64,000 nt of DNA from Actinomycetes bacterium (lineage in GTDB: Bacteria; Actinomycetota; Actinomycetes; JAHEKZ01): NCBI GenBank assembly GCA_027118455.1, contig JAJAYZ010000038.1, forward strand, positions 4,422 through 68,421, written 5' to 3'. Below, one piece after another: positions 7,551-25,240 of this stretch. The translations under genes were made by a program, and so were the position numbers. Below the pieces are notes generated by a model. That model did not search any database. It saw only the letters and a list, made by a program, of their open reading frames with translations, and was not told the origin of the DNA. Positions within the stretch are counted from its first letter, which is position 1. Every line of letters begins with the position of its first letter.

Positions 7551-7683
7551 ACACCCCGCGTGTCTGCCGAATGGGGGAACTGCTGCTCATCGCAGGAGTT
7601 CTGACGCGGGCCGCCAGGCTGCCGGGTACCGTTGGCCTGGAATCATGCGACGTCAACGCGGGCGATCAGGGAAGAAGAGGGAG

Positions 7684-9546
7684 ATGCACGTGCCAACGGC
7701 ATCTCCGGTCCCAGCGAGTCCAAACACGGTGACTCCCGACGACGCCCCTCCCGCGCGCAGGGGGCGAGCAACGCCGCTTCGAGTCGCGCGTGACATGCGA
7801 GCTGCCTGGCGACGAACCGCCCCATTTTTCGGCGCTTCGCGTGGCGCGATTTTGGCCCTTGCCGCCGCATCACTGCTCGGGGGCCTTGCGGAGGCTGTTC
7901 TGCTCACGCTGATCGCCGCCGCGGCAAACGCCATCGCGCTCGGAGAGTCAGAAGTCGAGACTGGACTGGGCCCGCTATCTGTCAACGCGGGGCTCTCAAC
8001 TCTGTTCGCGATTGGCATCGGTCTTGCGGTCCTGCGAGGCGCACTTCAGATTCTGGTGGCCTATCTGCCTGCCAAGATGAGCGCCAACGCAAACTCCGCA
8101 TTGCGCCGAAACCTGTTCGACGCGTTCACGAGCTCGTCGTGGACGGTCCAGTCGGCCGAGCGGGACGGGCATTTCCAGTCGCTCATCAACGGTCACGTGT
8201 CGCGGGCGTGCATGGCGATGATCGCCTTGGGCGCAGCCATCTCATCGTCGTTGATGCTGATGACACTGCTTGTTGCCGCACTTGCCTTGAGCGTGACGAC
8301 AGCACTCATCATCATTGGTGTCTCCGTCGGGTTGTTCGTCATCCTGAGGCCGCTCGCGCGGCGTCTGCGGGCCTACGCCACTGAGTTGAGCGCTGAGAAC
8401 GTTGAGTTCTCCAAGACCGCGCAGGAAGTGGTCCTCATGGCGGAGGAGACCCAGGTCTTTGGGGTTTCGGACTCCTACCGCCAGACCTTTTACGCCCAGC
8501 TCGAGAAGGTGCGACGCCCTTTGCTCCGTACCAGGTTCATGTCCAAGGGTCTGCCTGCGGCGTACCAGAGCCTGGCGCTACTCCTCGTTGTGGTCGCCCT
8601 TGCCATCATCTACGTCAATGGTGGCGCTGCGGTCGCATCAATGGGTGCCGTCGTGCTGTTGTTGATCCGGTCTATGAGTTATGGGCAGCAGGTACAGGCG
8701 TCCACGGCGAACCTTGATGAGCTGATCCCCTTCATGTATCGCCTTGGGGATGCCATGGACTATTACAGGGCAAACCCGCGCCAGGCCGGTGACCAGCCGG
8801 TACCTGATGTCGAGCGGATCGGACTGCGCGACGCGCACTTTGCCTACGTCCCGGGTGAAGACGTTCTTCGGGGGATCAGCTTCGAGGCGGTGACCGGGGA
8901 GGCCGTCGGGATCGTCGGGCCATCAGGGGCCGGAAAGTCCTCGTTGGTTCAGCTTCTCCTTCGCCTGCGTGACCCTGATTCCGGAATGCTGTTCGTCAAC
9001 GACTGCGATGCTCGTACGTTGGAGCTCTCTGGCTGGCAGCAGCAGGTCGCCTACGTGCCGCAGACTCCTCAGCTGATCTACGGGACCGTCGCTGAGAACA
9101 TCAAGTACTTCCGTGAGCACCTGTCGCGAGCTGAGATCCAGCGGGCCGCGGAGCGGGCGCACATCCACGACGAGATCATGTCGTGGCCGCAGGGATACGA
9201 CACGATCGTGGGTCAGCGAGCCTCGGCTGTTTCGGGTGGACAACGCCAACGATTGTGTCTGGCCAGAGCCCTGGCGGACAGCCCGCGCGTCTTGATTCTC
9301 GACGAGCCCACGAGTGCTCTCGATGTGAAGTCAGAGATGCTCGTGCAGGAGTCGCTGCGTGAGCTCAAGGGCGAGGTCATCTTGTTCCTGGTGGCACATC
9401 GCCTGTCGACCTTGTCGATCTGCAATCGCGTGATGGTCATCGTCAATGGACTCTTGGAGGCTATCGGTGAACCAGAGTCGCTGGTGCTGACCAATGACTT
9501 CTACCGGGAAGTGACGGAGATCACCCACAAGCAGGCGAATGCATGA
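7684..9546 (+). CDS. ABC transporter, fused permease/ATPase (MsbA-like exporter)
   Basis: An N-terminal 6-TM domain precedes the NBD. The NBD has Walker A GPSGAGKSS, signature LSGGQRQRLCLARAL, Walker B VLILDEPTSALD and H-loop VAHRL. The start is uncertain; the ORF opens at 7645, and the ATG at 7684 follows GAAGAGGGAG. Confidence 0.85.
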   Translation: MHVPTASPVPASPNTVTPDDAPPARRGRATPLRVARDMRAAWRRTAPFFGASRGAILALAAASLLGGLAEAVLLTLIAAAANAIALGESEVETGLGPLSVNAGLSTLFAIGIGLAVLRGALQILVAYLPAKMSANANSALRRNLFDAFTSSSWTVQSAERDGHFQSLINGHVSRACMAMIALGAAISSSLMLMTLLVAALALSVTTALIIIGVSVGLFVILRPLARRLRAYATELSAENVEFSKTAQEVVLMAEETQVFGVSDSYRQTFYAQLEKVRRPLLRTRFMSKGLPAAYQSLALLLVVVALAIIYVNGGAAVASMGAVVLLLIRSMSYGQQVQASTANLDELIPFMYRLGDAMDYYRANPRQAGDQPVPDVERIGLRDAHFAYVPGEDVLRGISFEAVTGEAVGIVGPSGAGKSSLVQLLLRLRDPDSGMLFVNDCDARTLELSGWQQQVAYVPQTPQLIYGTVAENIKYFREHLSRAEIQRAAERAHIHDEIMSWPQGYDTIVGQRASAVSGGQRQRLCLARALADSPRVLILDEPTSALDVKSEMLVQESLRELKGEVILFLVAHRLSTLSICNRVMVIVNGLLEAIGEPESLVLTNDFYREVTEITHKQANA

Positions 9547-10544: not shown

Positions 10545-11404
10545 CGACGTCGCCGGGTCGACTGCCGACCTTTCTCATCATCGGTGCCATGAAGTCCGGA
10601 AGCACCACGCTCTATAACCACCTGCGTCAGCATCCGGAAGTAATGCTTCCCGACTACAAGGAGCCGGAGTTCTTCGTCGAGGAGAAGAACTGGTCGCGTG
10701 GAGTTGACTGGTATCGGAGTCTGTTCATCGGAGCAGGCGAGGTCACAGCGGTAGGCGAGGCGTCTACCAGCTACACCAAGTTCACTGAATTCGGGGGGGT
10801 ACCCGCTCGGATTGCATCGGTCCTGCCAGACGTACAACTGGTTTACGTGCTCAGGGAGCCCATCTCGCGAATGCGTTCGATGTACCAGCACCAGGTGCTC
10901 ACTCGTAGCGAGTCCCGGCCGATCAATGAAGCGCTCCTCAAGGACGACCGCTACCTGGGCCCTAGTCTCTATGCCGAGAACGCACGCCGTTACCTCGACT
11001 ACTTCCCCAGGGACCGGTTGCATTTCCTGCTGACCGACGATCTCCAAAAGGACCCATCAGCAGCTGTGCGAGGGGTTACCGAGTTCCTTGGTCTACCGGA
11101 CACTCCCGACTTCGTACCGACCGAACGTGTCGATCTGCGGACGAGCGACCGTCGGGCCGACCGTCGGATCAAGTCGCGTGTGAGGGGCCTGGCTGCCGTC
11201 GAGGTCGGATTTCGCAGGGCACCCTCGTCGGTGCAGAACCTGCTTCGCAGGGTGGCAACGCGTCCTTCAACCGCGAGTGGTCCCACCGAGTTGGACCCGG
11301 CAACGGTCGAGGTGTTGCTGGAGAAGGTTCGGCCCGACTTGGAAAACCTCACCAGGATGCTCGGACCCCAGTTCGATGCATGGGGGCTGCTCGACCTCCC
11401 CTGA
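10541..11404 (+). CDS. PAPS-dependent sulfotransferase family protein
   Basis: 5'-PSB loop FLIIGAMKSGSTTL and 3'-PB motif YVLREPISRMRSMYQH are present. The ATG at 10541 overlaps the GT2 stop (ATGA). The ORF track extends the frame upstream to 10271 but that part overlaps GT2 and is not credible. Confidence 0.8.
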   Translation: MTTSPGRLPTFLIIGAMKSGSTTLYNHLRQHPEVMLPDYKEPEFFVEEKNWSRGVDWYRSLFIGAGEVTAVGEASTSYTKFTEFGGVPARIASVLPDVQLVYVLREPISRMRSMYQHQVLTRSESRPINEALLKDDRYLGPSLYAENARRYLDYFPRDRLHFLLTDDLQKDPSAAVRGVTEFLGLPDTPDFVPTERVDLRTSDRRADRRIKSRVRGLAAVEVGFRRAPSSVQNLLRRVATRPSTASGPTELDPATVEVLLEKVRPDLENLTRMLGPQFDAWGLLDLP

Positions 11405-11480: not shown

Positions 11481-12344
11481 ATGTGGCCGACGACCAAAGG
11501 GGAACCTGTGAAGCTTGAGCAGCGGCTGCGTGGAGCTGTGGCGCCAGGCGCCCGTACCGTGCTCGGAGCGTTGGGGCTTCACTCGGAGCCGAACTTCTTG
11601 ATCATCGGAACGCAAAAGGGCGGGACGACGTCGCTGTACGAGTACTTGATCCAACACCCACGGGTGTGTGCAGCTCGCCGCAAGGAGATCCACTACTTCG
11701 ACCGGTTCGAGAGCCTTGGCTGGGACTGGTATCGCAGTCAGTTTCCGCTCGCCGCGGCGCGACCTGGTGTTGTCACCGGCGAAGCCACGCCCTACTACTT
11801 GTTTCACCCAGACATCCCGCGCAGGGTCGCGGCTGCACTTCCTGAGGTGAAGCTGATCACGGTTTTGCGCAACCCCGCGGAACGTGCTTACTCCCACTAC
11901 CAACACTCGCTGCGGCACGATGTTGGGCTCAAGAGCTTCGAAGATGCCTTGGAGGTGGAGCGAGAGCTCTTGGCCGATCATGGTCTCGAGGAGGGTTTCT
12001 ACGATCGCGACGACTGGCATCGGCACTCCTATGTCACCAGGGGTTACTACGCCGATCAGCTGGAGCACTGGTTTGATCAGTTCCCACGCGGCCGACACCT
12101 CGTGCTCACCAGCGAAGACCTGCGGACTGACCCGGCGACGCAGATCGAACGGGTCGTCGCCTTCCTGGGGCTTCCCGAGTGGCAGCAGGCGACGTTTCCC
12201 TCCCACCATCGCGGTGGCTACTCAGTCGAACCTGGCGATCGTGCGGCCCTCGCGGAGCTTCGTACCCACTATCGGCCGCACAACCAGCGGCTCGGCGACC
12301 TGCTGGGCCAGCACTTTTCACGGTGGGACGACCCCGGCGCCTGA
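11481..12344 (+). CDS. PAPS-dependent sulfotransferase family protein (paralogue of the preceding gene)
   Basis: 5'-PSB FLIIGTQKGGTTSL and 3'-PB TVLRNPAERAYSHYQH are present. Length and architecture are the same as 10541-11404. Confidence 0.8.
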   Translation: MWPTTKGEPVKLEQRLRGAVAPGARTVLGALGLHSEPNFLIIGTQKGGTTSLYEYLIQHPRVCAARRKEIHYFDRFESLGWDWYRSQFPLAAARPGVVTGEATPYYLFHPDIPRRVAAALPEVKLITVLRNPAERAYSHYQHSLRHDVGLKSFEDALEVERELLADHGLEEGFYDRDDWHRHSYVTRGYYADQLEHWFDQFPRGRHLVLTSEDLRTDPATQIERVVAFLGLPEWQQATFPSHHRGGYSVEPGDRAALAELRTHYRPHNQRLGDLLGQHFSRWDDPGA

Positions 12345-12787
12345 CCCCGGCGTGTCGCCCGGGCATCGAGAGCGACACCATCGACAGTAGATGCTGGTGG
12401 GGGCCACTCGACCTGGAGCCGACTCATGTTCGACGCTGGTGCTGTTCTTGTTCTCGCCATTGTTGGTGGCGTGTGTGAGGTCGGGCTCGGGCTTTTGGTC
12501 GGTGGCATGATCGCCCACGGACAGCGTCACTCGCCATCGCAGTGGGAGTCGCACCTGGAGGGAAGTACTTTGAGTAACCGGACAGTCACCGAGCGCTAGC
12601 GAGCGTCGGTGGTCCCGGCCGAGATTGGCCGTTGGTCACTGCACACCCGGTCATTAGGGCATACTGAAGCGGCGCGCCGGCTCAGCTGTCCAGTCACTTC
12701 TGGTCTGTCCGGGTTCGCTCCCGCAATACTCTCGATCAGTGGTCAGCGCTCATACGCGTGCGTTCAGTCACAGCGAATGACAAGGGG

Positions 12788-14866
12788 ATGAGTCACCTGA
12801 GCAGGACTGACCGTCAACGGTCGACAGCACGAGGCACCTTTGGTGCTGGAAGCGCACGACGGGCCATCACCATGGCGACGGCCGCTCTGGTGGCGACGAC
12901 GGGTCTGATGGCCTTGTCTGCACCGGCTGGTGCTACCACTGCCCCGACGACGTATCAAGACCATGTCTATAGCAGTTCCGCCAGCGCACCCTCTTCGGAC
13001 AAGCCCCAGAGCAAGCTCTGGTTCAACGACGGATCCTGGTGGGCGTTGATGCTGGGGTCCTCGAGCGTGAACGTCTACCGCCTGATGCCCGACCACACTT
13101 GGCAGGACACCGGGACGGTCGTAGACACCCGGGCCACCAGCACCGGCGACGCGCTGTGGAGCAATGGAAAACTGTATGTGGCCAGTCGTACCGCTGGGAC
13201 CACAGGCAAGATCCGCATCTACCGCTTCTCCTATTCGGCTACCACCAAGAAGTACACCAAGGACACCGGCTTCCCGGTCTACATCGGCGGCGGTGGTGTC
13301 GAGAGTGTCACCATCGACAGGGACAGCCTCGGCCGGCTCTGGATCACATTCACCCGCGACAAGGCGGTCTGGGTCAGTCACACCACTATCTCCGATGCCG
13401 CCTGGCGCACGCCGTTCCGGATTCCAGGCTACGAAACGGACGGAGTGGCCGCTGACGACATTTCTGCGCTGGTCAGCCTCGGTGGGAAAATTGGGGTTTT
13501 CTGGTCTGACCAGCAATCAGGAAAGTTCAAGTTCGCACTTCACGTTGACACAGATCCCGACACAGTGTGGACGGGGGAGGTTCCCTTTCAAGGCTTCAAC
13601 ATCCCTGACGACCACATGAACATGAAGTCGATGCTTGGCGATGACCAGGGCCGACTGCACATCGCTGTGAAGACGTCGCTCGGTGACAATGGCGAGCCTC
13701 CCGAATCGCCTGGAGTCATTCTCATGACGCGAACGGCAGCAGGGGTTTGGTCCCAGGTGACGGTCGCCACCAAGGGCGACAACCTGACCCGCCCACAGGT
13801 GGTGCTCGACCGAGCGCACCAAGAGCTCACTGTGCTCATGTCCGATGAGTTCGGTGGGAACATCTACTCGAAGACCACGCCCCTCAACAACATCGCGTTC
13901 GCCCCTGGCAAGGGTGACGTCTTCATGTCATGGCCTGGCGCGGCGCTCAACAACGTCAGCACCTCGAAAGACCCGGTCAACGCGACGACGGGAATCGTCG
14001 CCATCGCGACGTCCAACACGGGCAACCGCTACTACCACGCCGAGATGCCCATCGATCCCGTTGCGGATTTGGATCCGCCATCTGTCGTGTCGATGTCACC
14101 CATCGACGGTGCAACAGGCGTGACGTCCACGGTGAGCCCAACGGTGACGTTCTCCGAACCGATGGACCCCAGCACCATTGACGCGAGTGCGTTCACCTTG
14201 GGTGGTCCCTCCGGCTCGGTCGCTGCGAACGTCACCTACGACGCCGCGTCCCGCGTCGCGACCCTCGATCCCACTGCGTCGCTTGCTGCCGGCGCGCCCT
14301 ACACCGCCACGATGAGCACGGGGGCGAAGGACCTGTCCGGGAATGCTCTGCCGGCCCCTTCGATCTGGAGTTTCTCTACCGGCGGAACTGCTGGCGAGAC
14401 AGTGAGCCTCACTCCCACTGCAGACGCGTACGTTTCGAGCGGGGCCTCGTCTTCGAACTTTGGTACGCAGACGTCGCTGATGGTGGACGGAAGCCCAGAC
14501 GTCAAGAGCTACCTCAAGTTCGACCTATCCAGTGTGGCGGGCCGCACGATCCAGTCAGCGTCCCTCTCGGTGCCTGTCACGACAAGCGGATCGGTGGGCA
14601 CTCAGAGTGTCCGGCTCACCGTGAAGGACACCTGGACCGAAGCCGGCATCACCTACGCAAACCGAGTTGGCCTCGACGCAACGGTTGGCACCTTCGGACC
14701 AACGGTGGGCGCCACGACCTACGCGGTGCCGTTGAGCCCCTCAGCCCTGCAGCCCAAGGTTGGCGGCCTCCTCTCCCTGGCGATCAGCTCGTCCAGTGGC
14801 GACGACGTCATCTTCGGCTCTCGGGAAAGCGCCCCGCCCACGCAGTTGGTTCTGGTTCTGCAGTAG
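12788..14866 (+). CDS. Secreted protein: N-terminal beta-rich domain, bacterial Ig-like domain, C-terminal beta-sandwich (carbohydrate-binding-like)
   Basis: Signal peptide MATAALVATTGLMALSAPAGA. An Ig-like segment reads PPSVVSMSPIDGATGVTSTVSPTVTFSEPMDPSTIDASAFTL..AGAPYTATMSTGAKDLSGNAL. The C-terminal part has a YLKFDLSSV motif. ATG at 12788 follows AAGGGG; the ORF opens at 12758. Confidence 0.6.
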   Translation: MSHLSRTDRQRSTARGTFGAGSARRAITMATAALVATTGLMALSAPAGATTAPTTYQDHVYSSSASAPSSDKPQSKLWFNDGSWWALMLGSSSVNVYRLMPDHTWQDTGTVVDTRATSTGDALWSNGKLYVASRTAGTTGKIRIYRFSYSATTKKYTKDTGFPVYIGGGGVESVTIDRDSLGRLWITFTRDKAVWVSHTTISDAAWRTPFRIPGYETDGVAADDISALVSLGGKIGVFWSDQQSGKFKFALHVDTDPDTVWTGEVPFQGFNIPDDHMNMKSMLGDDQGRLHIAVKTSLGDNGEPPESPGVILMTRTAAGVWSQVTVATKGDNLTRPQVVLDRAHQELTVLMSDEFGGNIYSKTTPLNNIAFAPGKGDVFMSWPGAALNNVSTSKDPVNATTGIVAIATSNTGNRYYHAEMPIDPVADLDPPSVVSMSPIDGATGVTSTVSPTVTFSEPMDPSTIDASAFTLGGPSGSVAANVTYDAASRVATLDPTASLAAGAPYTATMSTGAKDLSGNALPAPSIWSFSTGGTAGETVSLTPTADAYVSSGASSSNFGTQTSLMVDGSPDVKSYLKFDLSSVAGRTIQSASLSVPVTTSGSVGTQSVRLTVKDTWTEAGITYANRVGLDATVGTFGPTVGATTYAVPLSPSALQPKVGGLLSLAISSSSGDDVIFGSRESAPPTQLVLVLQ

Positions 14867-14883: not shown

Positions 14884-15813
14884 TTACGGTTGCTTGGTAC
14901 CTTCTGGCGGTGGTGCCGAGCGACTTTCACTGAGTTTGGCGAGTTGTCCGTAGGTGCGCAGCACACGCACGTAGGAGAATGCCGTCGCGTACCGGATCTT
15001 GTCGTCGCGCCGGACTGGCTCCGCGGCATGCCAGACCCTGCGCCAGACTGCAGTCCCGGCTCGTAGGTCAGAGAGTGCGGCCCGTGCCAGAGCGCGCTTT
15101 CCGCCAACACCACGGTGTTCGGCGAGCCCCCGTCCCACCCGCAGCGCCTTGCGACCGAGATCTGTCCAAGTCGTACGCGCCGGATGTTCGACGAGCGCGA
15201 GGGGCGCGTAGCCCAGCTTGCCGCCGCATCCTCGAAGACGGTGGCACCACTGCATGTCACCACCGGAACGGAGCGACGAGTCGAAGGGACCAACCTTGCG
15301 CATGGCGTCGGCGCGGACAAAGAGATTGGCGGTCACCGCGAAGCCGTCGCGCTCGATGTAACGCTGTTGGGGGAATCCCTCGACCGATTCGAAGATCTCC
15401 GGAGCGGTCTTCGGCCGGTCACCTCGAAAGGTCATGCGCACGGCCCCTCCTACAGCATCGCAATCGCTGGCGCGCAGGGCGACGATCCCTTCGGCTAACC
15501 AATCTCTGGCCGGAGTGCAGTCAGCATCGGTGAAAGCAAGGACTTCTCCGGTCGCTGCGGCCATCGCGGTGTTCCTGGCTGTGTAAGAGCCCGGACGTGG
15601 TTCGTGGAGCAGCACGAAGCGTGGGTCGTTGGGCATGGATTCTGCAACATCAAGGGTGGATCCGTTGTCGACGACCACCACGAGGACTCGGTCGGGCCGG
15701 TAGGTCTGGTCGAGCAGCGCTTCCGTGCAACGCCGCAAGCCATCTGGGTCGTCGAACACAGGAATCACGACGGTGACGTGCGGATCTTCGGCCATGCAAT
15801 GCACACAACTCAC
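14884..15813 (-). CDS. Glycosyltransferase family 2
   Basis: VTVVIPVFDDPDGLRRCTEALLDQTYRPDRVLVVVVDNGSTL and a downstream FTDADC (DXD) are present. It lies 24 nt downstream of the kinase-like gene on the same strand. Confidence 0.8.
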   Translation of the reverse strand: MSCVHCMAEDPHVTVVIPVFDDPDGLRRCTEALLDQTYRPDRVLVVVVDNGSTLDVAESMPNDPRFVLLHEPRPGSYTARNTAMAAATGEVLAFTDADCTPARDWLAEGIVALRASDCDAVGGAVRMTFRGDRPKTAPEIFESVEGFPQQRYIERDGFAVTANLFVRADAMRKVGPFDSSLRSGGDMQWCHRLRGCGGKLGYAPLALVEHPARTTWTDLGRKALRVGRGLAEHRGVGGKRALARAALSDLRAGTAVWRRVWHAAEPVRRDDKIRYATAFSYVRVLRTYGQLAKLSESRSAPPPEGTKQP

Positions 15814-15837: not shown

Positions 15838-18114
15838 CTAGGCTGCTTTCGCTCGAGCACGCGCCCAGCGCGAGAACGTGCGGCCGGTCGCTCGGCGTGT
15901 GGTTCGCGCCCCCAATCGAACCTGTCCTTGGATGCGGCGTACTGGTCCGCGAGGTCCTAGGATCGCCCGTTTGGTTCGAAACACGGCGCGGCTCGTGTGC
16001 TGCGACATCGGCGAACCGGATGTGAGCTGGTCTGCCGAGAGCCCGGTGAATGCGAGCCATCGGCGCTCGTAGGAGAGATCGCTGACGGGTAGGTCGTCGG
16101 TGTATCCGGCGGGGACGCCTCGAAAGGCGTAGCTCGATGCGAAGGGTGGCCGATCGTTGGTGTACCGGTGCAGGAACTCGAAGTCGACAATCTTCAGGCC
16201 GGCTCGGTGGTCAAGGATGAAGTTCTGTGGCTTGGCGTCGACGAGATCGAAGCCGTGCTCATGGATCTGGCGGAGGACGTCAACCATGTCGCGCACCAAG
16301 GGGAGGGGCACGAGTTTCCTGGACGTCATGAGTGGTGCCAGCTGATCCCGGTAATAAGGGCAGCTGAACCAGTTGTCCCCGCTTGCGAGGAGAGGTGGGA
16401 CCGCAGCCACCTCGGGGGAGAGCTGCTGCAGTGCCAGTAGCTCTCGTTCCATGTGACGGAGGTAGCCAGCCGCGAAGGTCTTCCGGACGACCCGACCGTC
16501 CGCGCCATCGACGACCTCGACCTTGGCCCGGCGTCCTCGGCTGAGCTGCCTCACGACCGGAACGGTGGTCCGGTAATGCACTCGACGCTGGCCGACGAGC
16601 TCTTGCAGCTCCTCCGCAGCCTGGGGGAGTGCGATGGTCACGTACTCCCAGGCCTCGAGCTCGTTGTCCGACGAGTGGACAGGGTTGAATCGCTCATGCG
16701 CCGAAACCCGAGCAGCCACAAGGTCGCGGACCCGCTCCTTGGCGACGAGAACGTCGTTGTTGGACAGGCGCGGGTATTTGTCGAGTGCCTTTCCGACGGG
16801 GGGAGCCGGCGCATAATGGACGGCCACGACAACTGTTACCGGTCCGCCGCCGCTCACTGGGAAGGGGCCCTGGCCCCAGTTGCCGCCACGTGTTTGTTCA
16901 GCGCAACGCGCCGCGGCAGCTGAGTCGAGCTCAGAGGTCATCAGCACCTCGAACCCGAGGTGATCCAGAAGCGCCAGGACCTCGTCGGTGCCGACCACCG
17001 ATGCGAGTCGCTCTCTGAGCAAGAAGACGGTCGTCTCAGGTGGGATCACCGGCTCTGGCTTCGCTGCGAAGAACTTCGCCTTGATCCACAGATTCCCATC
17101 TGCGAGTCGAACGAGCGTATCCACTGACGGACGCCAGCCCTCACCTGCCAGATATTCATCAACACCGTCGAGGGAAGCATCAAGGCGTACCCCGACCGAC
17201 CGAGCCAGGGATTCGAGGGCTGACTTGTAGTCGTGCTCGGGGTCGGTCACTGTTTCAGCAACGTGCGCTGATGCCAGACCCGAGCTCATTCCCTTGTGGT
17301 AGGCGGCGTGGTAGGCAAGCGAACGGAGATGGTCCAGCGGCGCAGGAACGCGGCAGCCGCTGGAATGAACGACGGCTCGATCGAGCAGCTGACGCGCCAA
17401 CTGCGGGGGGTAGTAGGCCATGTTCTTGTAGTCCGATGACGGCAGGCCGGTTTCGCTGTACAGGTCGAGAGGGATCGTTCCTGGCTCCTCGTTCATCAGG
17501 GTTCCGAAGGCGGCCAGGTGTTCATCTGTGACCAGAACGTCGAGATCTTCGCCCGGCTCCATGTGGGGCAAGTCCTCGAACCAGCGCAGAGCTGCGTACT
17601 GGATTCCGGCGGCATCCAGACGTTGGATCAGCCCCTCTGGACCCCACACGGGCGAGAAGTACCGACGCGTCCTTGGTGGTGCCTGGCGTGAGATCTCCAG
17701 GAGGTCGAAGCGGGTTTCCCCAACATCGAACCTACCCCTGGGCGTGACCGCTCGAGAGAACCGAGCCGCGGTCTTTGCGAGTCGGGTTTCGACGTCTCGG
17801 GCGCTCCACCCGGACTCCAGTGCTACGTAGCGGACGTGGCGAAGCTCACCGACCATCCAGAGCCGTTCGGCAAAGGCGGGTCGAACGATCAGCACGTCGG
17901 TGCTGCATCGGCGGACTTGGTCCGGTGAGGCAAGCTCATGAAAGCGCCGCTCAAGGCCATCTGCCTGCGACCGGACGGTATGCAGCGCCGCTAAAGTGAC
18001 GAGTCCGAGGTAGCGGGTGACGCCATCGGAAGCCAACTCGTGCGCGAGGTCGGGACTCTCAACCCCGAAATCGAGAATGCGCGTCTCAGGTTGGAGGAAG
18101 GTGGGCAACTGCAC
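15838..18114 (-). CDS. Large multidomain protein with C-terminal APH/choline-kinase-like phosphotransferase core; N-terminal two-thirds uncharacterised
   Basis: 758 aa. The C-terminus has the ordered set RVVRKTF (Lys) .. ELLALQQL (Glu) .. FDLVDAKPQNFIL (catalytic HxDxxxxN-like loop) .. IVDFEF (DFE/DWE Mg-binding). This points to a protein-kinase-like phosphotransferase of the aminoglycoside/choline kinase type. The middle region contains GEDLDVLVTDEHL, possibly nucleotidyltransferase-like (weak). Confidence 0.55.
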   Translation of the reverse strand: MQLPTFLQPETRILDFGVESPDLAHELASDGVTRYLGLVTLAALHTVRSQADGLERRFHELASPDQVRRCSTDVLIVRPAFAERLWMVGELRHVRYVALESGWSARDVETRLAKTAARFSRAVTPRGRFDVGETRFDLLEISRQAPPRTRRYFSPVWGPEGLIQRLDAAGIQYAALRWFEDLPHMEPGEDLDVLVTDEHLAAFGTLMNEEPGTIPLDLYSETGLPSSDYKNMAYYPPQLARQLLDRAVVHSSGCRVPAPLDHLRSLAYHAAYHKGMSSGLASAHVAETVTDPEHDYKSALESLARSVGVRLDASLDGVDEYLAGEGWRPSVDTLVRLADGNLWIKAKFFAAKPEPVIPPETTVFLLRERLASVVGTDEVLALLDHLGFEVLMTSELDSAAAARCAEQTRGGNWGQGPFPVSGGGPVTVVVAVHYAPAPPVGKALDKYPRLSNNDVLVAKERVRDLVAARVSAHERFNPVHSSDNELEAWEYVTIALPQAAEELQELVGQRRVHYRTTVPVVRQLSRGRRAKVEVVDGADGRVVRKTFAAGYLRHMERELLALQQLSPEVAAVPPLLASGDNWFSCPYYRDQLAPLMTSRKLVPLPLVRDMVDVLRQIHEHGFDLVDAKPQNFILDHRAGLKIVDFEFLHRYTNDRPPFASSYAFRGVPAGYTDDLPVSDLSYERRWLAFTGLSADQLTSGSPMSQHTSRAVFRTKRAILGPRGPVRRIQGQVRLGARTTRRATGRTFSRWARARAKAA

Positions 18115-18279: not shown

Positions 18280-20268
18280 GTGTCCTACCTCACCATCATC
18301 GTTGCTGGAGCTGAGCAGCAGGTGGCGCCGGGCACCACGTCAGCGGATCTGTTCGCTGACGATCGGTCGGTCGTTGTGGCCAGGGTCAACGCACAGCTTC
18401 GGGACCTCGCGCATGGCCTGGAGTCAGGTGATCAGGTTGACCCGGTCACGATCGAGTCCGAGGACGGGCTCGCCGTACTCCGCCACTCGTGTGCACATGT
18501 GTTGGCCCAGGCCGTGCAGGACACGTTCGTTGACGCCAAGCTGGGCATCGGCCCCCCGATCAAGGACGGCTTCTATTACGACTTCGATGTCGAGACTCCC
18601 TTCACTCCCGATGACGTCAAGCGTCTCGAAAAACGCATGCAGCAGATCGTCAAGTCGGGCCAGCGTTTCGGTCGGCGGGTGGTCTCCGAGAGCGAGGCAC
18701 GCGCCGAGCTCGCCGGTGAGCCGTACAAGCTCGAGCTGATCGGCCTCAAGGGTGGCGCTGTCGACGATGACGTCATGGAGGTCGGCGGTGCCGAGCTCAG
18801 CATCTACGAGAACGTCGATGCCAAGACCGGCGAACGAAAGTGGCAGGACCTGTGTCGCGGACCGCACCTACCGTCGACTCGGCTCATTCCAGCGTTCAAG
18901 CTGATGCGGTCGGCTGCCGCGTACTGGCGTGGCAGTGAGAAGAACGCGCAGCTCCAGCGTATATACGGCACCGCGTGGCCGACCAAGGATGCGCTTGCTC
19001 AGCACTTGAGTTTTCTTGAGGAGGCTGAGCGACGCGACCATCGGCGGCTCGGGGCCGAGCTCGACCTCTTCTCCTTCCCTGACGAAATTGGTTCGGGGCT
19101 CGCGGTCTTCCATCCCAAGGGGGGGACCGTGCGCAGGGTGATGGAGGACTACTCCCGGCGCCGCCACGAAGAGTCCGGCTATGAGTTCGTCTACTCACCG
19201 CACATCACCAAACAGGCGCTGTTCGAGACCTCGGGGCACCTCGACTGGTATGCCGACGGGATGTACCCGCCCATGCACCTGGACGCGGAGTACGACGACG
19301 ACGGCACCGTGCGTCGTCCTGGGCAGAACTACTACCTGAAGCCGATGAACTGCCCTTTCCACAACTTGATCTATCGGTCGCGCGGGCGTTCCTATCGCGA
19401 GCTGCCGCTCCGCCTCTTCGAGTTCGGGTCTGTCTACCGCTACGAAAAGTCGGGTGTCGTGCATGGCTTGACCCGCGTCCGAGGGATGACTCAGGACGAC
19501 GCACACATCTACTGCACCAAGGAGCAGATGCCCGCTGAGCTCGATAGCCTGCTCACCTTTGTTCTCGAGCTGCTCCGCGACTACGGGCTCGACGACTTCT
19601 ATCTCGAGCTCTCGACGCGTAACGACGAGAAGTACGTCGGCGAAGATGCAGAGTGGGCCGAAGCGACCGAGACCCTGCGGCTGGCCGCGCAGAAGCAGAA
19701 CCTCGACCTGGTCATGGACGAGGGGGGCGCAGCCTTCTACGGTCCGAAGATCTCCGTTCAGACCAAGGACGCCATCGGCCGAACCTGGCAGATGTCGACG
19801 ATCCAGGTCGATTTCCAGCTGCCGCAGCGGTTCGACCTGGAGTACCAGGCCGCCGACGGCATCAGGCAACGCCCTGTCATGATCCACCGCGCACTCTTCG
19901 GCTCGATCGAGCGCTTCTTCGGCGTCCTGTTGGAGCACTACGCCGGGGCTTTCCCGGCGTGGCTGTCGCCGGTGCAAGTGGTCGGAATCCCGATCTCGGA
20001 CTCCCATGTCGATTACCTCCAGGGCGTTGCCGAACGACTGCGCGCCGAGGGCATCCGAGTCGAGGTCGACGCCTCCGACGACCGCATGCAGAAGAAGATC
20101 CGCACCGCGCAGAAGCAAAAGATTCCGTTCATGCTTCTCGCCGGGGATGAGGACGTCAGCAAGGACGCGGTGTCCTTCCGTTTCCGGGACGGCACCCAAG
20201 AGAACGGCATCCCCGTCGCTGACGCAGTCGCCCGCATCGTCTCCGACGTCGCCGAACGCCGGGCGTAG
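18280..20268 (+). CDS. thrS: Threonine--tRNA ligase
   Basis: 662 aa with the N-terminal TGS/editing region and class II core ([32 protein letters not shown]). Unambiguous. Confidence 0.97.
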
Positions 20269-20279
20269 GACGTACGGCT

Positions 20280-20822
20280 ATGGCGTCCGACCCAGACGGA
20301 ATCCAACGACTATGGGCTCCGGATCGGCTTGCCTATATCCAGGGTGAGAACCGTCCGGATTCTTCTGAAGCCGGCGCCGGCTGTCCCTTCTGCCGGGCCC
20401 CAGGTGAGCCCGACGATGTGTCGCTGGTGGTGGCTCGTGGCGAACACGCCTATGTCGTGTTGAACCTCTATCCGTACAACTCGGGCCACGCGTTGATCTG
20501 CACCTACCGACACGTCGCCGGGTATGTCGACGTCAGTACGGAGGAGGCTCACGAGATTGCCGACCTCACTCAGCAGACCATCGCTTCCCTGCAGACTGCG
20601 ATGGGGCCGCAGGGCTTCAACCTCGGGATGAACCAGGGTTCGGTCGGCGGCGCCGGCATCGCCGCCCACCTGCACCAGCACGTCGTGCCACGGTGGGGTG
20701 GTGACACCAACTTCATGCCGGTCGTAGCCCAGACGAAGGTGATGCCGCAGTCGCTGCACGACACCCGTGATGCACTGCGCGCGGTGTGGCCGGGAGAGCG
20801 GCCTACGCCGTCTTCCGGTTGA
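20280..20822 (+). CDS. HIT-family protein (Ap4A phosphorylase-like, Rv2613c-type)
   Basis: Histidine triad AAHLHQHVVPR and CPFC Zn-ribbon-like N-terminus. It sits directly after thrS, as in mycobacteria. Confidence 0.8.
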   Translation: MASDPDGIQRLWAPDRLAYIQGENRPDSSEAGAGCPFCRAPGEPDDVSLVVARGEHAYVVLNLYPYNSGHALICTYRHVAGYVDVSTEEAHEIADLTQQTIASLQTAMGPQGFNLGMNQGSVGGAGIAAHLHQHVVPRWGGDTNFMPVVAQTKVMPQSLHDTRDALRAVWPGERPTPSSG

Positions 20823-21696
20823 GGATTCGCTCGAGCGGCAGGAAGGCCGCCAGGCATACTACGTGCGGCATGAAGATGATCCGGATCATCAGGAACGTCA
20901 CCACGTGGAACGAAACGAGGAAGGCCACCGCATACTGCTGGAACTTTTGGCGCATGAAGAGTAGGGCAGGGGATGCGAACTCAAGGGTGAGGATGAACCA
21001 CTGCGATAGCTGCAAGGTCCAGGGCAGTTGCAGGAGCGGGTCAGCCAACATCGTTCCGCGGCGGATCACTGCGCGGGCGATGGTGGTGGAGTTGGCCCAC
21101 GCCCAGCCTCCGTAGCGCACCTTGGCGATCGCGGCCAGGAAGTAGGTCGCTACGACCCCGACCTGCACCATCCGCAGGGCCCAACCGGCGGACGGCGATG
21201 GCGCCATGTCACGCAGTGCCGCACGTCCGGCTGTCGGGAGAACGGCCAGCGCGACCAGGAAGGCGAATCGGTCGTGGTCGACCTTCCCGTACGAGAAGCT
21301 CACCAGCATCCACTCCAGATAGAGCAGGAAGATGCCGGCCCCCAGCCAGGTCTGAACCCGGGGTGCGCGGTTCATGGCGATGAGGACCACTATCGCCGCC
21401 GAGAGTCCGACAGCTCCGTACTGCACCAAGTGGACGAGTGTCGGTGTCGGCGTCGGAAGCGGGAGGACCCGGCCGATCAGGAGTGGTCGGTAGAGGTCGG
21501 CGTCAACGTAGCCGTGTGCGGCGCCCCACGGCCGCAGGACGAGCACGTCCAACGGTAGGAATGCATAGATCAGCACGCGAAACGCAGCGATCCTCGCGCG
21601 GGGGACGGGCGTGAACCACCAGCGGCTCAGCGCGGCGGCAACCCTTGTTCCGGTACCCACCCTGGGCGCCGGCTCAGCTTCAGTGGTCGCGCTCAT
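20803..21696 (-). CDS. Polytopic membrane protein, HTTM-domain-like
   Basis: 297 aa with about 8 TM helices. The N-terminal WWFTPVPRARIAAFRVLIYAFLPLDVLV resembles the HTTM opening motif. Its start overlaps the stop of the upstream small gene. Confidence 0.45.
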   Translation of the reverse strand: MSATTEAEPAPRVGTGTRVAAALSRWWFTPVPRARIAAFRVLIYAFLPLDVLVLRPWGAAHGYVDADLYRPLLIGRVLPLPTPTPTLVHLVQYGAVGLSAAIVVLIAMNRAPRVQTWLGAGIFLLYLEWMLVSFSYGKVDHDRFAFLVALAVLPTAGRAALRDMAPSPSAGWALRMVQVGVVATYFLAAIAKVRYGGWAWANSTTIARAVIRRGTMLADPLLQLPWTLQLSQWFILTLEFASPALLFMRQKFQQYAVAFLVSFHVVTFLMIRIIFMPHVVCLAAFLPLERILNRKTA

Positions 21697-22196
21697 CAGC
21701 CAGTCTCAGCATCGTCGGGTGCGGTACTCCACTGCGCCAGTACTGTCTCGACGACCTCGCCGGTCGGCACCTTGTCGACGACCTCTGTTGCCTGGCGGAC
21801 GATGCGCAAGTCGGTCCAGGCAGGCTCGTCGGGATGCAGAGCCGAGCGGCTTGCGGCCACCGCTGCGAGAAGATCGGGATCCTCCTCGAACCGGGGAAGC
21901 TGGCCTTCGAACTCGGCGACGTTCATACCGACAGTTCCCGGCGATGGCCGCACCAGTGTCCAGTCGCTGCCCTCGGACTTGATTTGAAGAGCGACAACGG
22001 CGACTTCGCCGGTGGCCTGACTGCTGGTGGCGTACATCCGGAACGGGCCGAAGGGAAAGTGGTCGTCGCTTCCGAGAAAGGCCCCCACCGTCAGCACCCC
22101 GAAGACGGCGGCGGCCGCTACCAGCCGCCACCACCGGCCGGAGCTGGTGATCTCCGAGGCCGGATCGGTCGATGGGCTCGGAGTCGCTGACGTCAC
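21696..22196 (-). CDS. Hypothetical membrane-anchored protein (one N-terminal TM, extracytoplasmic domain)
   Basis: 166 aa. TM RWWRLVAAAAVFGVLTVGAFLG. It sits between the EF-G-like and HTTM-like genes with 20-nt and 1-nt junctions, so it is likely co-transcribed. Confidence 0.4.
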   Translation of the reverse strand: MTSATPSPSTDPASEITSSGRWWRLVAAAAVFGVLTVGAFLGSDDHFPFGPFRMYATSSQATGEVAVVALQIKSEGSDWTLVRPSPGTVGMNVAEFEGQLPRFEEDPDLLAAVAASRSALHPDEPAWTDLRIVRQATEVVDKVPTGEVVETVLAQWSTAPDDAETG

Positions 22197-22216
22197 CGCT
22201 GGAGCCTAGGACAGCG

Positions 22217-24409
22217 CTACGAGTGGGCTGACTCGGCCAGCACCTTGGCCGACACCTGCGGTGGCATCGGGTCGTGACGGGCATACCGGCGGGTGAAGGT
22301 GCCTGTTCCGTGCGACATCGAGCGCAGGTCAATGGCGTACCTGACGATCTCTAGCTGCGGCACCTCGGCGCGAACCAAGGTGCGCCCTTGGTCGCCGCTG
22401 CCGGCACCGAGCGGCTCGGTGCCGACGACGTGTCCGCGGCGCGCGGAGAGGTCGCCCATCACGGCGCCGACGTAGTTGTCGTCGACGAGCACCGATACTT
22501 GATCAACTGGCTCCAGGAGCAGCACCTGAGACTGCTCGGCTGCATCGCGCAGTGCGTGACCGCCGGCCATCTGAAAGGCCATGTCCGATGAGTCGACCGA
22601 GTGCGCCTTGCCGTCAACCAGAGTGACGCGGATGTCAACCATCGGGTAGCCGGCACCGACCCCCTTTTCCATCTGTGCCAGCACCCCCTTCTCGACACTG
22701 GGGATAAACTGGCGCGGCACCGAACCGCCGACCACCTTGTCGACGAACTCAAGGCCGCTCCCCTGGGGCGTCGGTTCGACCTCGATGGTGCAGATCGCGA
22801 ACTGGCCATGACCACCGGACTGTTTGACATGGCGCCCATGCCCCTTGGAGGCACCGGCAAAGGTCTCACGCAAAGCAACGCGGAGCGGCACGGTGTCGAC
22901 AGAGACGCCATGGCGGCTGGAGAGGCGGTCCAGGAGGACGTCGACGTGCGCCTCGCCCATGGTCCAGAGAACGACCTGTCCGGTTTCGGGGCTGTGCTCA
23001 AGGCGCATCGTGGGATCCTCGGCAACGAGCCGGGCCAGGCTCTGCAAGAGCTTGTCCTCGTCGGCCTTGCTCCGCGCCACGATCGCAACCGGCAGCAGGG
23101 GTTCAGGCATCTCCCACGCCTGCATCAGCAGGGGGCGTTCCGTGTCAGAGAGAGTATCTCCGGTCTCGGCGTTGGCGAGCTTGGCCACCGCACAAACGTC
23201 GCCGGCCACTGCCTTGGCCAGGCCCCGCTGCGTCTTTCCGAGTGGGGAAGAGAGCGCTCCGACTTTCTCATCGAGGTCATGGTCGTCGTGGCCGCGCTCG
23301 GCCAGCCCGTGACCTGAGACGTGGACCACCATGTCGGGGCGCAAAGTTCCGGAGAAGACCCGCACCAACGAGATCCGGCCGACGTATGGGTCGCTGACGG
23401 TCTTGACGACCTCGGCGACCAGCGGGCCAGCCGGATCGGCGGTCAGCGGTCCTTGTGGTGAACCGTCCGGCGTGGTCACGGGCGGAACTGAGTGCTCCAG
23501 GGGACTGGGGAAACCACGGGTCATCACCTCGAGCAGCTCGACCAACCCCATTCCGGTGGACGCCGCAACGGGCACGACCGGGTAGAAGGAGCCGCGGGCG
23601 ACCGCCTTCTCCAGGTCTTCGATGAGCGTCTCGAGGTCGATCTCCTTTCCGGCAAGGTAGCGGTCCATCAGGGTCTCGTCCTCGCTTTCGGCGATGATCG
23701 CCTCCAGCAGTACGGCTCGGGACGGTTCGATCATCTCGACGTGCTGCGGCTCTGGGTCACGCTCAATCCGCGTGCCCGAGGTGTAGTCGTCGACTCGTTG
23801 TGACAGCAGCGCGATGAGGCCGCCAACGGAGTCGTCGTCGGCCAGCATCGGCAGGTAGAGCGGCAGGACGCCGTCACCGAATGCGCTCTGGGCGGCGAAC
23901 AGTGCCTCGTCATAGTCGGCTCGTGGCGCGTCGAGCTTGGTAACGACGACGGCTCGTGGCATGCCGACAGCTGCGCACTCTTCCCACAGCAGTCGTGTCA
24001 TTCCGTCGACGCCGTCGGTAGCGGCGATCACGAACAGAGCAGCATCTGCAGCGCGCAGTCCTGCGCGCAGGTCCCCGACGAAGTCGGGGTAGCCGGGGGT
24101 GTCGAGGAGGTTGACCTTGATGCCGTCGTGCTCGAGCGGAGCCAGGCTGAGCGAGATACTGCGTTGCTGGCGGTGCTCTGCCTCGTCGAAGTCAGAAACG
24201 GTGGTGCCGTCCTCGACGCTTCCAGCGCGCGAGATGGCCCCCGTGCTGGCCAGCAACGCCTCGACCAGAGTGGTCTTGCCGGCCCCGCTGTGCCCGACGA
24301 GTACGACGTTCCGGATCGTGCCTGGGTTGCTGACCGCTGGCGTTGCACTGCCGGCACCACCCCCTGTTCGGCCACCAGTGCCGCCGGCGCTGCCTCCCTT
24401 GTCTGCCAT
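22217..24409 (-). CDS. Elongation factor G-like GTPase (EF-G paralogue)
   Basis: G1 VGHSGAGKTT, G3 DTPGYPDF and G4 TKLD are present, with full-length EF-G domains II-V. The ORF track extends to 24553, but the extra N-terminus is encoded by a tandem decamer repeat. ATG at 24409 has a GGGAGAGG RBS and is preferred. Confidence 0.85.
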   Translation of the reverse strand: MADKGGSAGGTGGRTGGGAGSATPAVSNPGTIRNVVLVGHSGAGKTTLVEALLASTGAISRAGSVEDGTTVSDFDEAEHRQQRSISLSLAPLEHDGIKVNLLDTPGYPDFVGDLRAGLRAADAALFVIAATDGVDGMTRLLWEECAAVGMPRAVVVTKLDAPRADYDEALFAAQSAFGDGVLPLYLPMLADDDSVGGLIALLSQRVDDYTSGTRIERDPEPQHVEMIEPSRAVLLEAIIAESEDETLMDRYLAGKEIDLETLIEDLEKAVARGSFYPVVPVAASTGMGLVELLEVMTRGFPSPLEHSVPPVTTPDGSPQGPLTADPAGPLVAEVVKTVSDPYVGRISLVRVFSGTLRPDMVVHVSGHGLAERGHDDHDLDEKVGALSSPLGKTQRGLAKAVAGDVCAVAKLANAETGDTLSDTERPLLMQAWEMPEPLLPVAIVARSKADEDKLLQSLARLVAEDPTMRLEHSPETGQVVLWTMGEAHVDVLLDRLSSRHGVSVDTVPLRVALRETFAGASKGHGRHVKQSGGHGQFAICTIEVEPTPQGSGLEFVDKVVGGSVPRQFIPSVEKGVLAQMEKGVGAGYPMVDIRVTLVDGKAHSVDSSDMAFQMAGGHALRDAAEQSQVLLLEPVDQVSVLVDDNYVGAVMGDLSARRGHVVGTEPLGAGSGDQGRTLVRAEVPQLEIVRYAIDLRSMSHGTGTFTRRYARHDPMPPQVSAKVLAESAHS

Positions 24410-24506
24410 GGTCTGAACCTCTCCCGGGTCGCCGTCTCGTGAACGCCCCCACCCTGCTCGCCCCGGTCGACATGGGCAAGTGACCAGTGGTCTCGATCGA
24501 AGGGGC

Positions 24507-24542
24507 GTGCCGTGCCGTGCTGTGCCGTGCTGTGCCGTGCTG
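24507..24542. repeat. Tandem decamer repeat (about 3.5 x TGTGCCGTGC) in the divergent EF-G-like / pgsA intergenic region
   Basis: Seen directly: cgtgccgtgc tgtgccgtgc tgtgccgtgc tgg. Confidence 0.6.
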
Positions 24543-24622
24543 GCGCTCGTCATCGCTAGGCTCGCTATGCGGAGGGTGCTCGGTACCGTGTGCCAGTCAT
24601 GACCTAAAGGCGGGAGCTCGAG

Positions 24623-25237: not shown

Positions 25238-25240
25238 CCC

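Follow-up and report, generated by a model that had tools for sequence, protein, structure and literature searches.

What is the role of a gene that stands at the end of a polysaccharide locus and encodes a kinase-like C-terminus preceded by some 500 further residues? The question is raised by a 64,000-nucleotide stretch of DNA from an Actinomycetes bacterium (assembly GCA_027118455.1, contig JAJAYZ010000038.1, positions 4,422 to 68,421 of the forward strand; this whole stretch is referred to as the window), in which a minus-strand gene of 758 codons closes an exopolysaccharide-type locus. A preliminary description had assigned the last 200 or so residues to the aminoglycoside phosphotransferase (APH)/choline kinase (ChoK) type and had found no familiar signature in the N-terminal 500. 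Models, alignments and profile searches reveal a protein of four domains and a polybasic tail: a degenerate Rossmann-like domain (N, residues 1-145), a pol-beta-type nucleotidyltransferase (NTase)-like domain with a helical subdomain (D2, residues 146-355), a nucleoside-diphosphate-kinase (NDK)-like domain (D3, residues 356-515) and a minimal, Rio-sized protein-kinase-like domain (K, residues 516-~700). Three nucleotide-dependent, catalytic-looking sites are present, with key residues conserved across phyla. The D2-D3 pair forms the invariant family core, to which the kinase and Rossmann domains are optional additions.

The open reading frame (ORF) occupies exactly the coordinates described, lies on the minus strand and has 758 codons beginning at a GTG; the plus-strand translation of the same interval is full of stops. 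The product is 100% identical to LH645_05310, an NCBI protein from a metagenome-assembled genome of Actinomycetia bacterium. A word-indexed search returned 214 homologues, nearly all of ~760 aa and annotated as 'hypothetical' or 'protein kinase domain-containing', with Georgenia, Cellulomonas, Cellulosimicrobium, Oerskovia, Pengzhenrongella and Actinotalea among the named carriers. The GTG start is supported by the homologues, whose N-termini begin at the same alignment column. A chance ORF is ruled out by the identical metagenomic protein, the 214 homologues and the conservation of K545, E558, D626, N631 and D644. The motifs quoted in the preliminary description all occur in the translation in the order claimed: GEDLDVLV at ~188-195, RVVRKTF with K545, ELLALQQL with E558, FDLVDAKPQNFIL with D626, K628 and N631, and IVDFEF with D644 and E646.

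Inspection of residues 356-515 shows that the N-terminal 500 residues do contain a familiar signature, N-x-x-H-x-S-D. On the evidence of alignments and models, this domain is NDK-like and keeps the phospho-histidine apparatus, with FNPVHSSDNELEAWEY (H480) as the counterpart of the phospho-histidine site of NDKs. A Foldseek comparison of the 146-515 model with the PDB returned only NDKs or NDK-domain proteins among the top 50 matches (E 4e-5 to 7e-4; TM-score on the target 0.37-0.56), and NDKs also came first in the viral structure library BFVD. Searched against the PDB, a hidden Markov model (HMM) of 27 members gave 51 matches with an E cut-off of 10, and almost every one was an NDK; its segment fNvlHSsDneaEAleYl aligns with eNLIHASDSEDSAVDEI of the Mimivirus NDK, so that H480 falls at the phospho-histidine position. 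Eleven of the 27 homologues match the Pfam NDK profile (PF00334) with E values no higher than 10, the best being 1.3e-5, and the window domain itself gave no PF00334 match. As no ndk gene turned up in the DNA searched, hhalign was run against an E. coli Ndk sequence entered by hand, a caveat on the mapping; the alignment pairs R367 with K12, R463 with R105, N477 with N115, H480 with H118 and D483 with D121; the histidine alignment is shown independently against the PDB NDKs. Invariant positions in the domain comprise F364, R367, R409-G-G-N-W413, G416, G422, G423, P425, N452, K459, R463, N477, H480 and D483. When N477-P-V-H480-S-S-D483 is set against the PROSITE pattern N-x2-H-[GA]-S-D, the Asn, His and Asp are invariant and the residue following His is Ser, or Ala in one member.

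The preliminary description had suggested that the GEDLDVLV segment could belong to a nucleotidyltransferase-like fold, and the domain at residues 146-355 supports it. The carboxylate triad is complete, with D190-L-D192 and D217 invariant in alignments of 39 and 27 sequences and located on predicted strands (191-195 for DxD, 214-220 for D217). Further invariant residues are R177-W178-F179, E189, H269, Y272, H273 and K274, the last four of which make the helical part His-rich. PF14907 (NTP_transf_5, 'uncharacterised nucleotidyltransferase') is weakly matched by 25 of the 27 members taken singly, with a best E of 8.8e-4; at 12 bits (E 0.15), the window domain stays below the 31.2-bit threshold. 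Residues 146-355 thus appear distantly related to PF14907 at a level below the curated threshold. In BFVD, the 146-515 model gave weak matches to the LicD family (E 0.057) and to pol-beta NTases (E 0.19), and a profile search found no sequence relative of the domain in the PDB. The same library returned three giant-virus proteins (A0A5K0UAL1, A0A1V0SAX2 and A0A481Z0W0; 477-863 aa, annotated as 'glycosyltransferase' or uncharacterised) whose alignments to the D2-D3 model span ~300 columns, with low TM-scores and E values of 1.5e-3 to 1e-2. Judged from the model, these are possibly a remote viral NTase-like and NDK-like tandem fused to a glycosyltransferase.

The full-length AlphaFold2 model, built from 39 homologues, is confident throughout (pLDDT 90.5, pTM 0.82), as is a second model of residues 146-515 (pLDDT 93). 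In its secondary structure, residues 1-145 form an alpha/beta domain of beta-alpha repeats ending in a beta-hairpin. This domain is poorly conserved, with one invariant column among 20 diverse homologues, and many homologues lack it altogether and start near residue 145. A profile search of the PDB returned no match to it. An active S-adenosylmethionine (SAM) methyltransferase of the WbdD kind was considered and rejected, as there is neither a Gly-rich motif I nor an acidic residue after strand 2. From its sequence, the domain is read as a degenerate, non-catalytic scaffold.

To what extent do these domains travel together? An exhaustive HMMER search with domains 2-3 returned 887 representative clusters (50% identity) at E ≤ 1e-3 and 411 at ≤ 1e-30, and architectures were read from lengths and matched positions. 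The window protein represents N-D2-D3-K (~770 aa). Shorter forms are D2-D3-K (~620 aa; P0147), kinase-less N-D2-D3 (~570 aa; P0123, P0125 and the 578-aa protein of locus L051, in which the basic tail directly follows D3) and D2-D3 alone (~400 aa; P0133, P0139). Longer forms are fusions: a Wzx flippase with D2-D3-K (1182 aa; P0196), a family 4 glycosyltransferase (GT4) with N-D2-D3 (898 aa; P0193), TPR-GT41 with D2-D3-K (1328 aa; P0167) and TPR-GT41-FkbM methyltransferase with D2-D3-K (1812 aa; P0212). Among 10 representatives checked across architectures, DxD, the third Asp and N-x-x-H-x-x-D are present in nearly all, and Y-H-K-G and R-G-G-N-W in most. That these motifs are kept across architectures indicates that the NTase-like and NDK-like pair is the core and the kinase an add-on.

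Two candidates bearing on the kinase-less forms were discarded. The 325-aa gene that follows the kinase-less homologue in L051 shows no similarity by hhalign and so is not a split-off kinase. P0107 (564 aa, locus L081) is probably a frameshifted copy rather than a natural variant. It lies on a contig with fragmented genes, including an ABC_tran fragment of 166 aa and a Bac_transf fragment of 52 aa, and is for that reason unfit as an architecture example; the locus is either decayed or part of a long-read assembly with frameshifts. Better examples are L051 and the representatives of ~560-580 aa.

The kinase domain was nonetheless the part on which the preliminary description was built, and its prediction of a bilobal kinase fold holds: a Foldseek search with the full model returned Rio2 (the top match), ROCK1, Pho85, CDKL, Chk1 and CDKs at E ~3e-7. 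The motifs sit at catalytic positions, where K545 is the VAIK Lys, E558 the alphaC Glu, D626-x4-N631 the catalytic loop and D644-F-E646 the metal-binding motif. D-A-K-P-Q-N...D-F-E aligns with D-L-K-P-E-N...D-F-G of PKG, and phmmer aligned DAKPQNFILDHRAGLKIVDFEF to the PKG segment. Across the 27 sequences, drawn from many phyla, there is no variation at K545, E558, D626 or E646 and almost none at N631 or D644, while the K-P of the catalytic loop is not kept in distant members; K545 and E558 are also invariant among the 39, with D626, N631 and D644 nearly so. Beyond the metal-binding motif lies a conserved segment, GD-x-P...SY-x-x-R-W686. G527-R-R-A-K stands in place of the Gly-rich G-x-G-x-x-G loop, and the C-lobe is small, with ~75 residues from DFE to the tail and no activation segment or APE visible in the alignment.

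The APH/choline-kinase label does not survive this comparison. Against the PDB, the family profile recovered MELK, CK2, MAPKs, PknB, StkP and LanKC at E 2e-9 to 1e-5; the top 60 matches contain neither an APH nor a ChoK structure. Member-wise Pfam matches, all below threshold, favoured Pkinase (25/27) over APH (10/27), RIO1 (6), ABC1 (6) and Choline_kinase (1/27). The best APH match among homologues had E 4.9e-5, and the window protein had none; its Pkinase (PF00069) match of 21.2-23.4 bits covers the catalytic-loop region only and falls below the threshold of 31.7. The Brenner motif H-x-D-x4-N is unmatched by F-D-L-V-D-A-K-P-Q-N, which has Leu two residues ahead of the catalytic Asp; the D-F-E of APH/ChoK type is present as V-D-F-E-F. 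With profile searches of Pfam and the PDB against it and no H-x-D present, membership of APH/ChoK is rejected, and the profiles and model place the domain closer to eukaryotic-type and Rio kinases.

Two explanations that begin from the kinase can be weighed here. The protein could be a plain APH/ChoK-type small-molecule or polymer kinase whose N-terminal 500 residues are accessory or structural, as the intact catalytic residues, the resemblance of DFE(F/Y) to the APH/ChoK DFE, the weak APH matches of 10/27 members and the existence of kinase-fold glycan kinases such as WbdD and WaaP would suggest. We consider this unlikely, because the best-conserved residues and two further catalytic-looking sites lie N-terminal to the kinase, many members have no kinase and the matches favour eukaryotic-type and Rio kinases. 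It could instead be a regulatory Ser/Thr (or His) protein kinase controlling polysaccharide synthesis, with the NDK-like and NTase-like domains as nucleotide sensors. Protein kinases are indeed its best sequence matches, NDKs can act as protein histidine kinases and exopolysaccharide loci are often kinase-regulated. We regard such a role as very unlikely given a truncated C-lobe (~75 residues after DFE, no recognised APE, Rio2 as top fold match), a kinase dispensable in many members, 'sensor' domains that keep full catalytic sets and fusion partners that are enzymes, not signalling domains. As for the preliminary suggestion of a sugar kinase that adds phosphate, many members are without a kinase, so that it is not the conserved core and phosphate addition is at best part of the story.

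The polybasic tail (~701-758) follows the kinase domain, with predicted helices at 702-719 and 724-756. The last 63 residues contain 16 Lys/Arg and no Asp/Glu and have a moderate hydrophobic moment. The tail is lineage-variable and is absent from the Planococcus homologues; it is probably a membrane- or polyanion-binding element.

Where the family occurs was addressed with a scan of one genome per species, which gave 223 loci, the best 80 of which were used for the 80-locus counts below. These 80 fall in Actinomycetota, Cyanobacteria, Planctomycetota, Gemmatimonadota, Bacillota (Planococcus), Pseudomonadota (Halomonas, Hyphomicrobiaceae, Sphingomonas) and Kiritimatiellae/other PVC-group bacteria. 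The family is therefore present in at least seven bacterial phyla, and it is large and uncharacterised. Glycosyltransferases (GT2 or GT4) were counted in 63 loci using HMMs built from the locus glycosyltransferase clusters; one is the immediate neighbour in 23/63 and lies within 5 kb in 45/63. As to whether homologues are always flanked by glycosyltransferases, the counts speak for 'often' and against 'always', and the association with glycan assembly is strong. A relative of the GT2 downstream of the window gene lies within ~6 kb of the homologue in 41/80 loci from five phyla. Homologue and GT2 identities correlate (Spearman 0.79), as expected from shared phylogeny, and this was not used as evidence of co-evolution.

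The layout of the loci varies with lineage. The usual actinomycetotal arrangement has an ABC exporter divergent upstream and a GT2 just downstream, and the fused exporter is the divergent immediate neighbour in most actinobacterial loci. Planococcus loci contain Wzx, DegT, RmlA/B-like enzymes and GT4s; in Planctomycetes, GT2s flank the homologue on either side and large LamG/PKD proteins are present; Hyphomicrobiaceae loci have GlmS and SPOR/TPR proteins. UGDH is also found among the neighbours. In two Halomonas loci (L077, L080), flanking TagF-like CDP-glycerol glycerophosphotransferases (PF04464) set the homologues within a locus for a teichoic-acid-like phospho-polymer, here in a Gram-negative host. 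In two Kiritimatiellae/PVC loci (L057, 3540-4265; L064, 3351-4403), whose homologues have no N domain, a PfkB-family sugar kinase lies immediately upstream together with a kinase-like protein of the YrbL/PhoP_reg type, and these extra kinases of the same operon could bear on the question of substrate. Taken together, D2-D3 coupling is obligatory, and the family is physically and genetically linked to membrane-associated glycan assembly.

This distribution also bears on the notion that the protein belongs to an anti-phage or conflict system and has a polysaccharide locus as no more than a neighbour. Defence systems often contain NTase and kinase domains, and PADLOC gave weak PD-T4-6 kinase matches (E 0.004-0.008) in the catalytic loop only. 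Such matches represent generic kinase-loop similarity, and no systematic co-location with defence islands was seen; most loci, in at least seven phyla, have a polysaccharide context, and members are fused to Wzx or glycosyltransferases. We give a defence role almost no credence and have rejected it.

What would such a protein do? We favour, tentatively and as a plausible reading that falls short of probable, a cytoplasmic, membrane-peripheral enzyme by which a lipid-linked glycan receives a decoration or cap joined through phosphate, with nucleoside triphosphate (NTP) made locally through H480. The proposal draws on domain similarities, models, gene context and analogy. The kinase domain would first transfer phosphate from ATP to a hydroxyl on a sugar of the lipid-linked glycan, most likely the residue added by the partner GT2; WaaP, alongside WbdD, is a precedent for glycan phosphorylation by a kinase-like fold. 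The NTase-like domain, with its DxD...D metal site and an NTP (or a donor linked to nucleoside diphosphate, NDP), would then build on that phosphate to yield a phosphodiester-linked decoration or cap. The NDK-like domain, through phospho-H480, would make a non-adenine NTP locally from ATP and NDP, including NDP released by neighbouring glycosyltransferases, and the polybasic tail would keep the enzyme at the membrane. In this scheme NTP is both the output of the NDK-like domain and the input of the NTase-like domain, and the invariant D2-D3 pairing would thereby be rationalised. Phosphorylation followed by elaboration is favoured because of two precedents. WbdD, a multi-domain kinase-methyltransferase, caps the O9a O antigen and couples to ABC export (PMC3482155). 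PsmN, a 'putative uncharacterised NTP transferase' of lasso-peptide clusters, needs its DxD to add hexose to a phosphate installed by PsmK (PMC6993621). For the window protein itself, we infer both substrates and reaction order.

Several observations weigh against this proposal. The canonical h-G-[GS]/G-S motif of the NTase fold is absent and an invariant R-W-F-E stands there, at a position taken from spacing; the Pfam and fold matches of the domain are weak; and 18/63 loci have no recognised glycosyltransferase within 5 kb. That PsmN belongs to PF14907 is an assumption of ours. Canonical NDKs are soluble housekeeping oligomers, and none is known to serve a glycan pathway. Kinase-less members must obtain a phosphorylated acceptor otherwise or do something else. 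The protein is also highly conserved across loci whose glycans differ. One substrate common to all of them is thereby suggested, which need not be a glycan and could as well be a small molecule or the lipid carrier; this caveat holds for the alternative below too.

The main rival is a precursor-activation (salvage) scheme, which we consider possible but doubtful. Here, a sugar would be converted to sugar-1-phosphate (or an alcohol to its phosphate) and then to NDP-sugar for the GT2, and the NDK-like domain would recycle the NDP, closing a nucleotide cycle and relieving product inhibition of the glycosyltransferase. All three catalytic domains would then handle nucleotides, with NTP linking NDK to NTase and D2-D3 inseparable. 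Members are fused to or adjoin NDP-releasing glycosyltransferases, and those without a kinase could use metabolic sugar-1-phosphates. Kinase-fold anomeric sugar kinases paired with nucleotidyltransferases (AmgK/MurU, NahK) and the bifunctional kinase-pyrophosphorylase FKP offer parallels. In contrast, many loci already have standard RmlA- or UGDH-type precursor enzymes, the Wzx fusion and polybasic tail point to membrane action on lipid-linked material, and free cytoplasmic sugars are unusual substrates for exopolysaccharide synthesis. No sugar-1-phosphate nucleotidyltransferase is known to have the pol-beta NTase fold.

Returning to the proposed glycan-modifying enzyme, we can extend it to the family as a whole, with considerable doubt: the NTase-like and NDK-like tandem, with or without a kinase, may represent a new class of glycan-assembly enzyme that captures glycosyltransferase-released NDP, recharges it via a phospho-histidine and spends the NTP. 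If true, that NTP would be spent on a phosphodiester-linked or nucleotide-activated cap or decoration of lipid-linked glycans, and nothing characterised in polysaccharide biosynthesis would be a precedent for this nucleotide-cycling chemistry. Glycans depend on phosphate-linked caps and decorations for control of their chain length, export, charge and immune recognition. Very few of the enzymes responsible have been identified, examples being WbdD, WaaP, LicD and Stealth. The NDK-like and NTase-like fusion could turn out to couple nucleotide recycling to glycan modification in a new way. Database annotation is also corrected, in that the kinase domain after which members are now named (where they are not 'hypothetical') is not the family-defining part.

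The surroundings of the gene in the window are given in Table 1. The glycan-locus setting that had been noted is borne out here, and the context is kept in other genomes. As described previously, 24 nt separate the stop codon of the gene from the start of the co-oriented GT2 gene that follows, its probable operon partner. The 491-aa ORF in mid-locus is a candidate membrane or assembly component. Two tandem sulfotransferases suggest, on sequence grounds, a sulfated exopolysaccharide in an actinobacterium. Relatives of them stand beside the homologue in only 4 or 5 of the 80 loci (L003, L034, L051, L061), so that they are not part of the conserved module, and supply of 3'-phosphoadenosine-5'-phosphosulfate to them was rejected as a core function on this count. 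The first sulfotransferase ORF as mechanically called overlaps the first GT2 by 274 nt; its Pfam match starts at residue 100, and the true start is therefore probably well downstream of 10271. Relatives of the Big_5 and CBM96 protein, or very large LamG_3/PKD proteins, stand beside homologues in 19 loci, Planctomycetes included, and may be secreted glycan-binding or glycan-processing partners; L013, L033, L036, L038, L040, L043 and L022 are among the loci with such neighbours. Housekeeping DNA begins straight after the gene, with thrS. We take the interval 18280-27459 to resemble the actinobacterial thrS-HIT-pgsA1-acyltransferase-pimA phosphatidylinositol-mannoside cluster, split here by the HTTM protein and EF-G2.

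Table 1. Coordinates in the window of the gene, its domains and the neighbouring genes (TMD, transmembrane domain; NBD, nucleotide-binding domain).
Feature	Position	Strand	Remarks
Bac_transf initiating transferase	176-1693	minus	
Unassigned 491-aa ORF	2035-3510	minus	mid-locus; no Pfam (E ≤ 1e-4) or PADLOC match
Two GT4 genes			between the 491-aa ORF and the Wzy_C gene in locus order
Wzy_C-type polymerase or ligase	6132-7550		
Fused TMD-NBD ABC exporter (HepA/MsbA/PglK-like)	7645..9546	plus	
GT2, first of locus	9543-10544	plus	
Sulfotransfer_1 gene 1	10271-11404	plus	
Sulfotransfer_1 gene 2	11481-12344	plus	tandem
Big_5 + CBM96 (DNRLRE) protein	12758-14866	plus	between sulfotransferases and second GT2
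GT2, second of locus	14884..15813	minus	co-oriented with gene, 24 nt downstream
Whole gene, 758-aa four-domain protein	15838..18114	minus	GTG start; ORF listing and translation
Polybasic helical tail, residues ~701-758	15841..16014	minus	
Protein-kinase-like domain, minimal (Rio-sized), residues 516-~700	16015..16569	minus	
NDK-like domain, residues 356-515	16570..17049	minus	
Pol-beta-type NTase-like domain and helical subdomain, residues 146-355	17050..17679	minus	
Degenerate Rossmann-like domain, residues 1-145	17680..18114	minus	model secondary structure, alignment
thrS	18280-20268		
HIT	20280-20822		
HTTM-domain protein	20803-21696	minus	
EF-G2	22217-24553	minus	
CDP-alcohol phosphatidyltransferase	24623-25237		
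Lipid-A-type acyltransferase	25241-26197		
GT4	26194-27459		

How, finally, does the protein compare with systems already described? WbdD, the E. coli O9a terminator (PDB 4AZS family), is likewise a multi-domain cytoplasmic enzyme of a glycan locus that combines an N-terminal Rossmann/methyltransferase-type domain with a eukaryotic-type kinase fold, the latter acting on a glycan hydroxyl. Both also end in a helical region that is tied, probably so in the window protein, to membrane or partner binding, an ABC exporter is linked to both and both kinase domains resemble ROCK/DMPK in fold searches. In contrast, WbdD lacks both the NTase-like and the NDK-like domain; its methyltransferase is active where the window protein has no SAM motifs, and it has a long coiled coil in place of a ~55-residue polybasic tail. 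WbdD is outside the top 50-60 fold and profile matches of the window protein, and the window exporter is of the fused MsbA/HepA type, not Wzm/Wzt. The PsmK/PsmN system pairs a kinase with an NTP transferase whose DxD is essential, and D2 is distantly PF14907-like with the DxD kept; there, however, the substrate is a peptide Ser, PsmK is of HPr-kinase type, the two are separate proteins and an NDK-like domain is lacking. The LicA-LicC-LicD pathway shares the glycan-decoration context and the weak structural match of the 146-515 model to the LicD family (E 0.057). LicD is an NTase-fold phospho-alcohol transferase that acts before Wzx-type flipping. The window protein has no LicC-type cytidylyltransferase, and an NDK-like domain stands in its place.

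Domain by domain, the likenesses are similarly partial. With NDKs (PF00334; PDB 2B8Q, 1K44, 1EHW), D3 shares the ferredoxin-like beta-alpha-beta-beta-alpha-beta fold, N-x-x-H-x-S-D with the His aligned, and conserved counterparts (R367, R463, N477 and D483) of K12, R105, N115 and D121. It differs in being embedded in a multi-domain protein, in the change of K12 to Arg, in the Ser after His and in an invariant insert of the family's own, R409-G-G-N-W-G-x-G-P, in the alphaA/alpha2 region. The kinase domain shares with Rio and eukaryotic-type kinases (PF01163, PF00069) the bilobal fold, VAIK Lys, alphaC Glu, D-x-K-P-x-N and D-F-x, and with Rio2 the small C-lobe; unlike these, it has G-R-R-A-K for the Gly-rich loop, DFE for DFG and a sub-threshold Pfam score. 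APH/ChoK (PF01636, PF01633) belong to the same superfamily and have the DFE-type metal motif, and differ by their H-x-D Brenner motif. Pfam thresholds are missed for Pkinase, APH, NDK and PF14907, and the strict NDK and NTase signatures are each partly matched. Literature searches, which also covered PF14907, brought up nothing relevant: there was no account of the family, of NDK-like domains in bacterial glycan loci or of the architecture of the window protein. By analogy, then, the window protein would work most like WbdD-type terminators and LicA/LicD- or PsmK/PsmN-type pathways while being a member of none. We rate it as a proposed multi-domain glycan-modifying enzyme in which known folds are joined in an undescribed combination.

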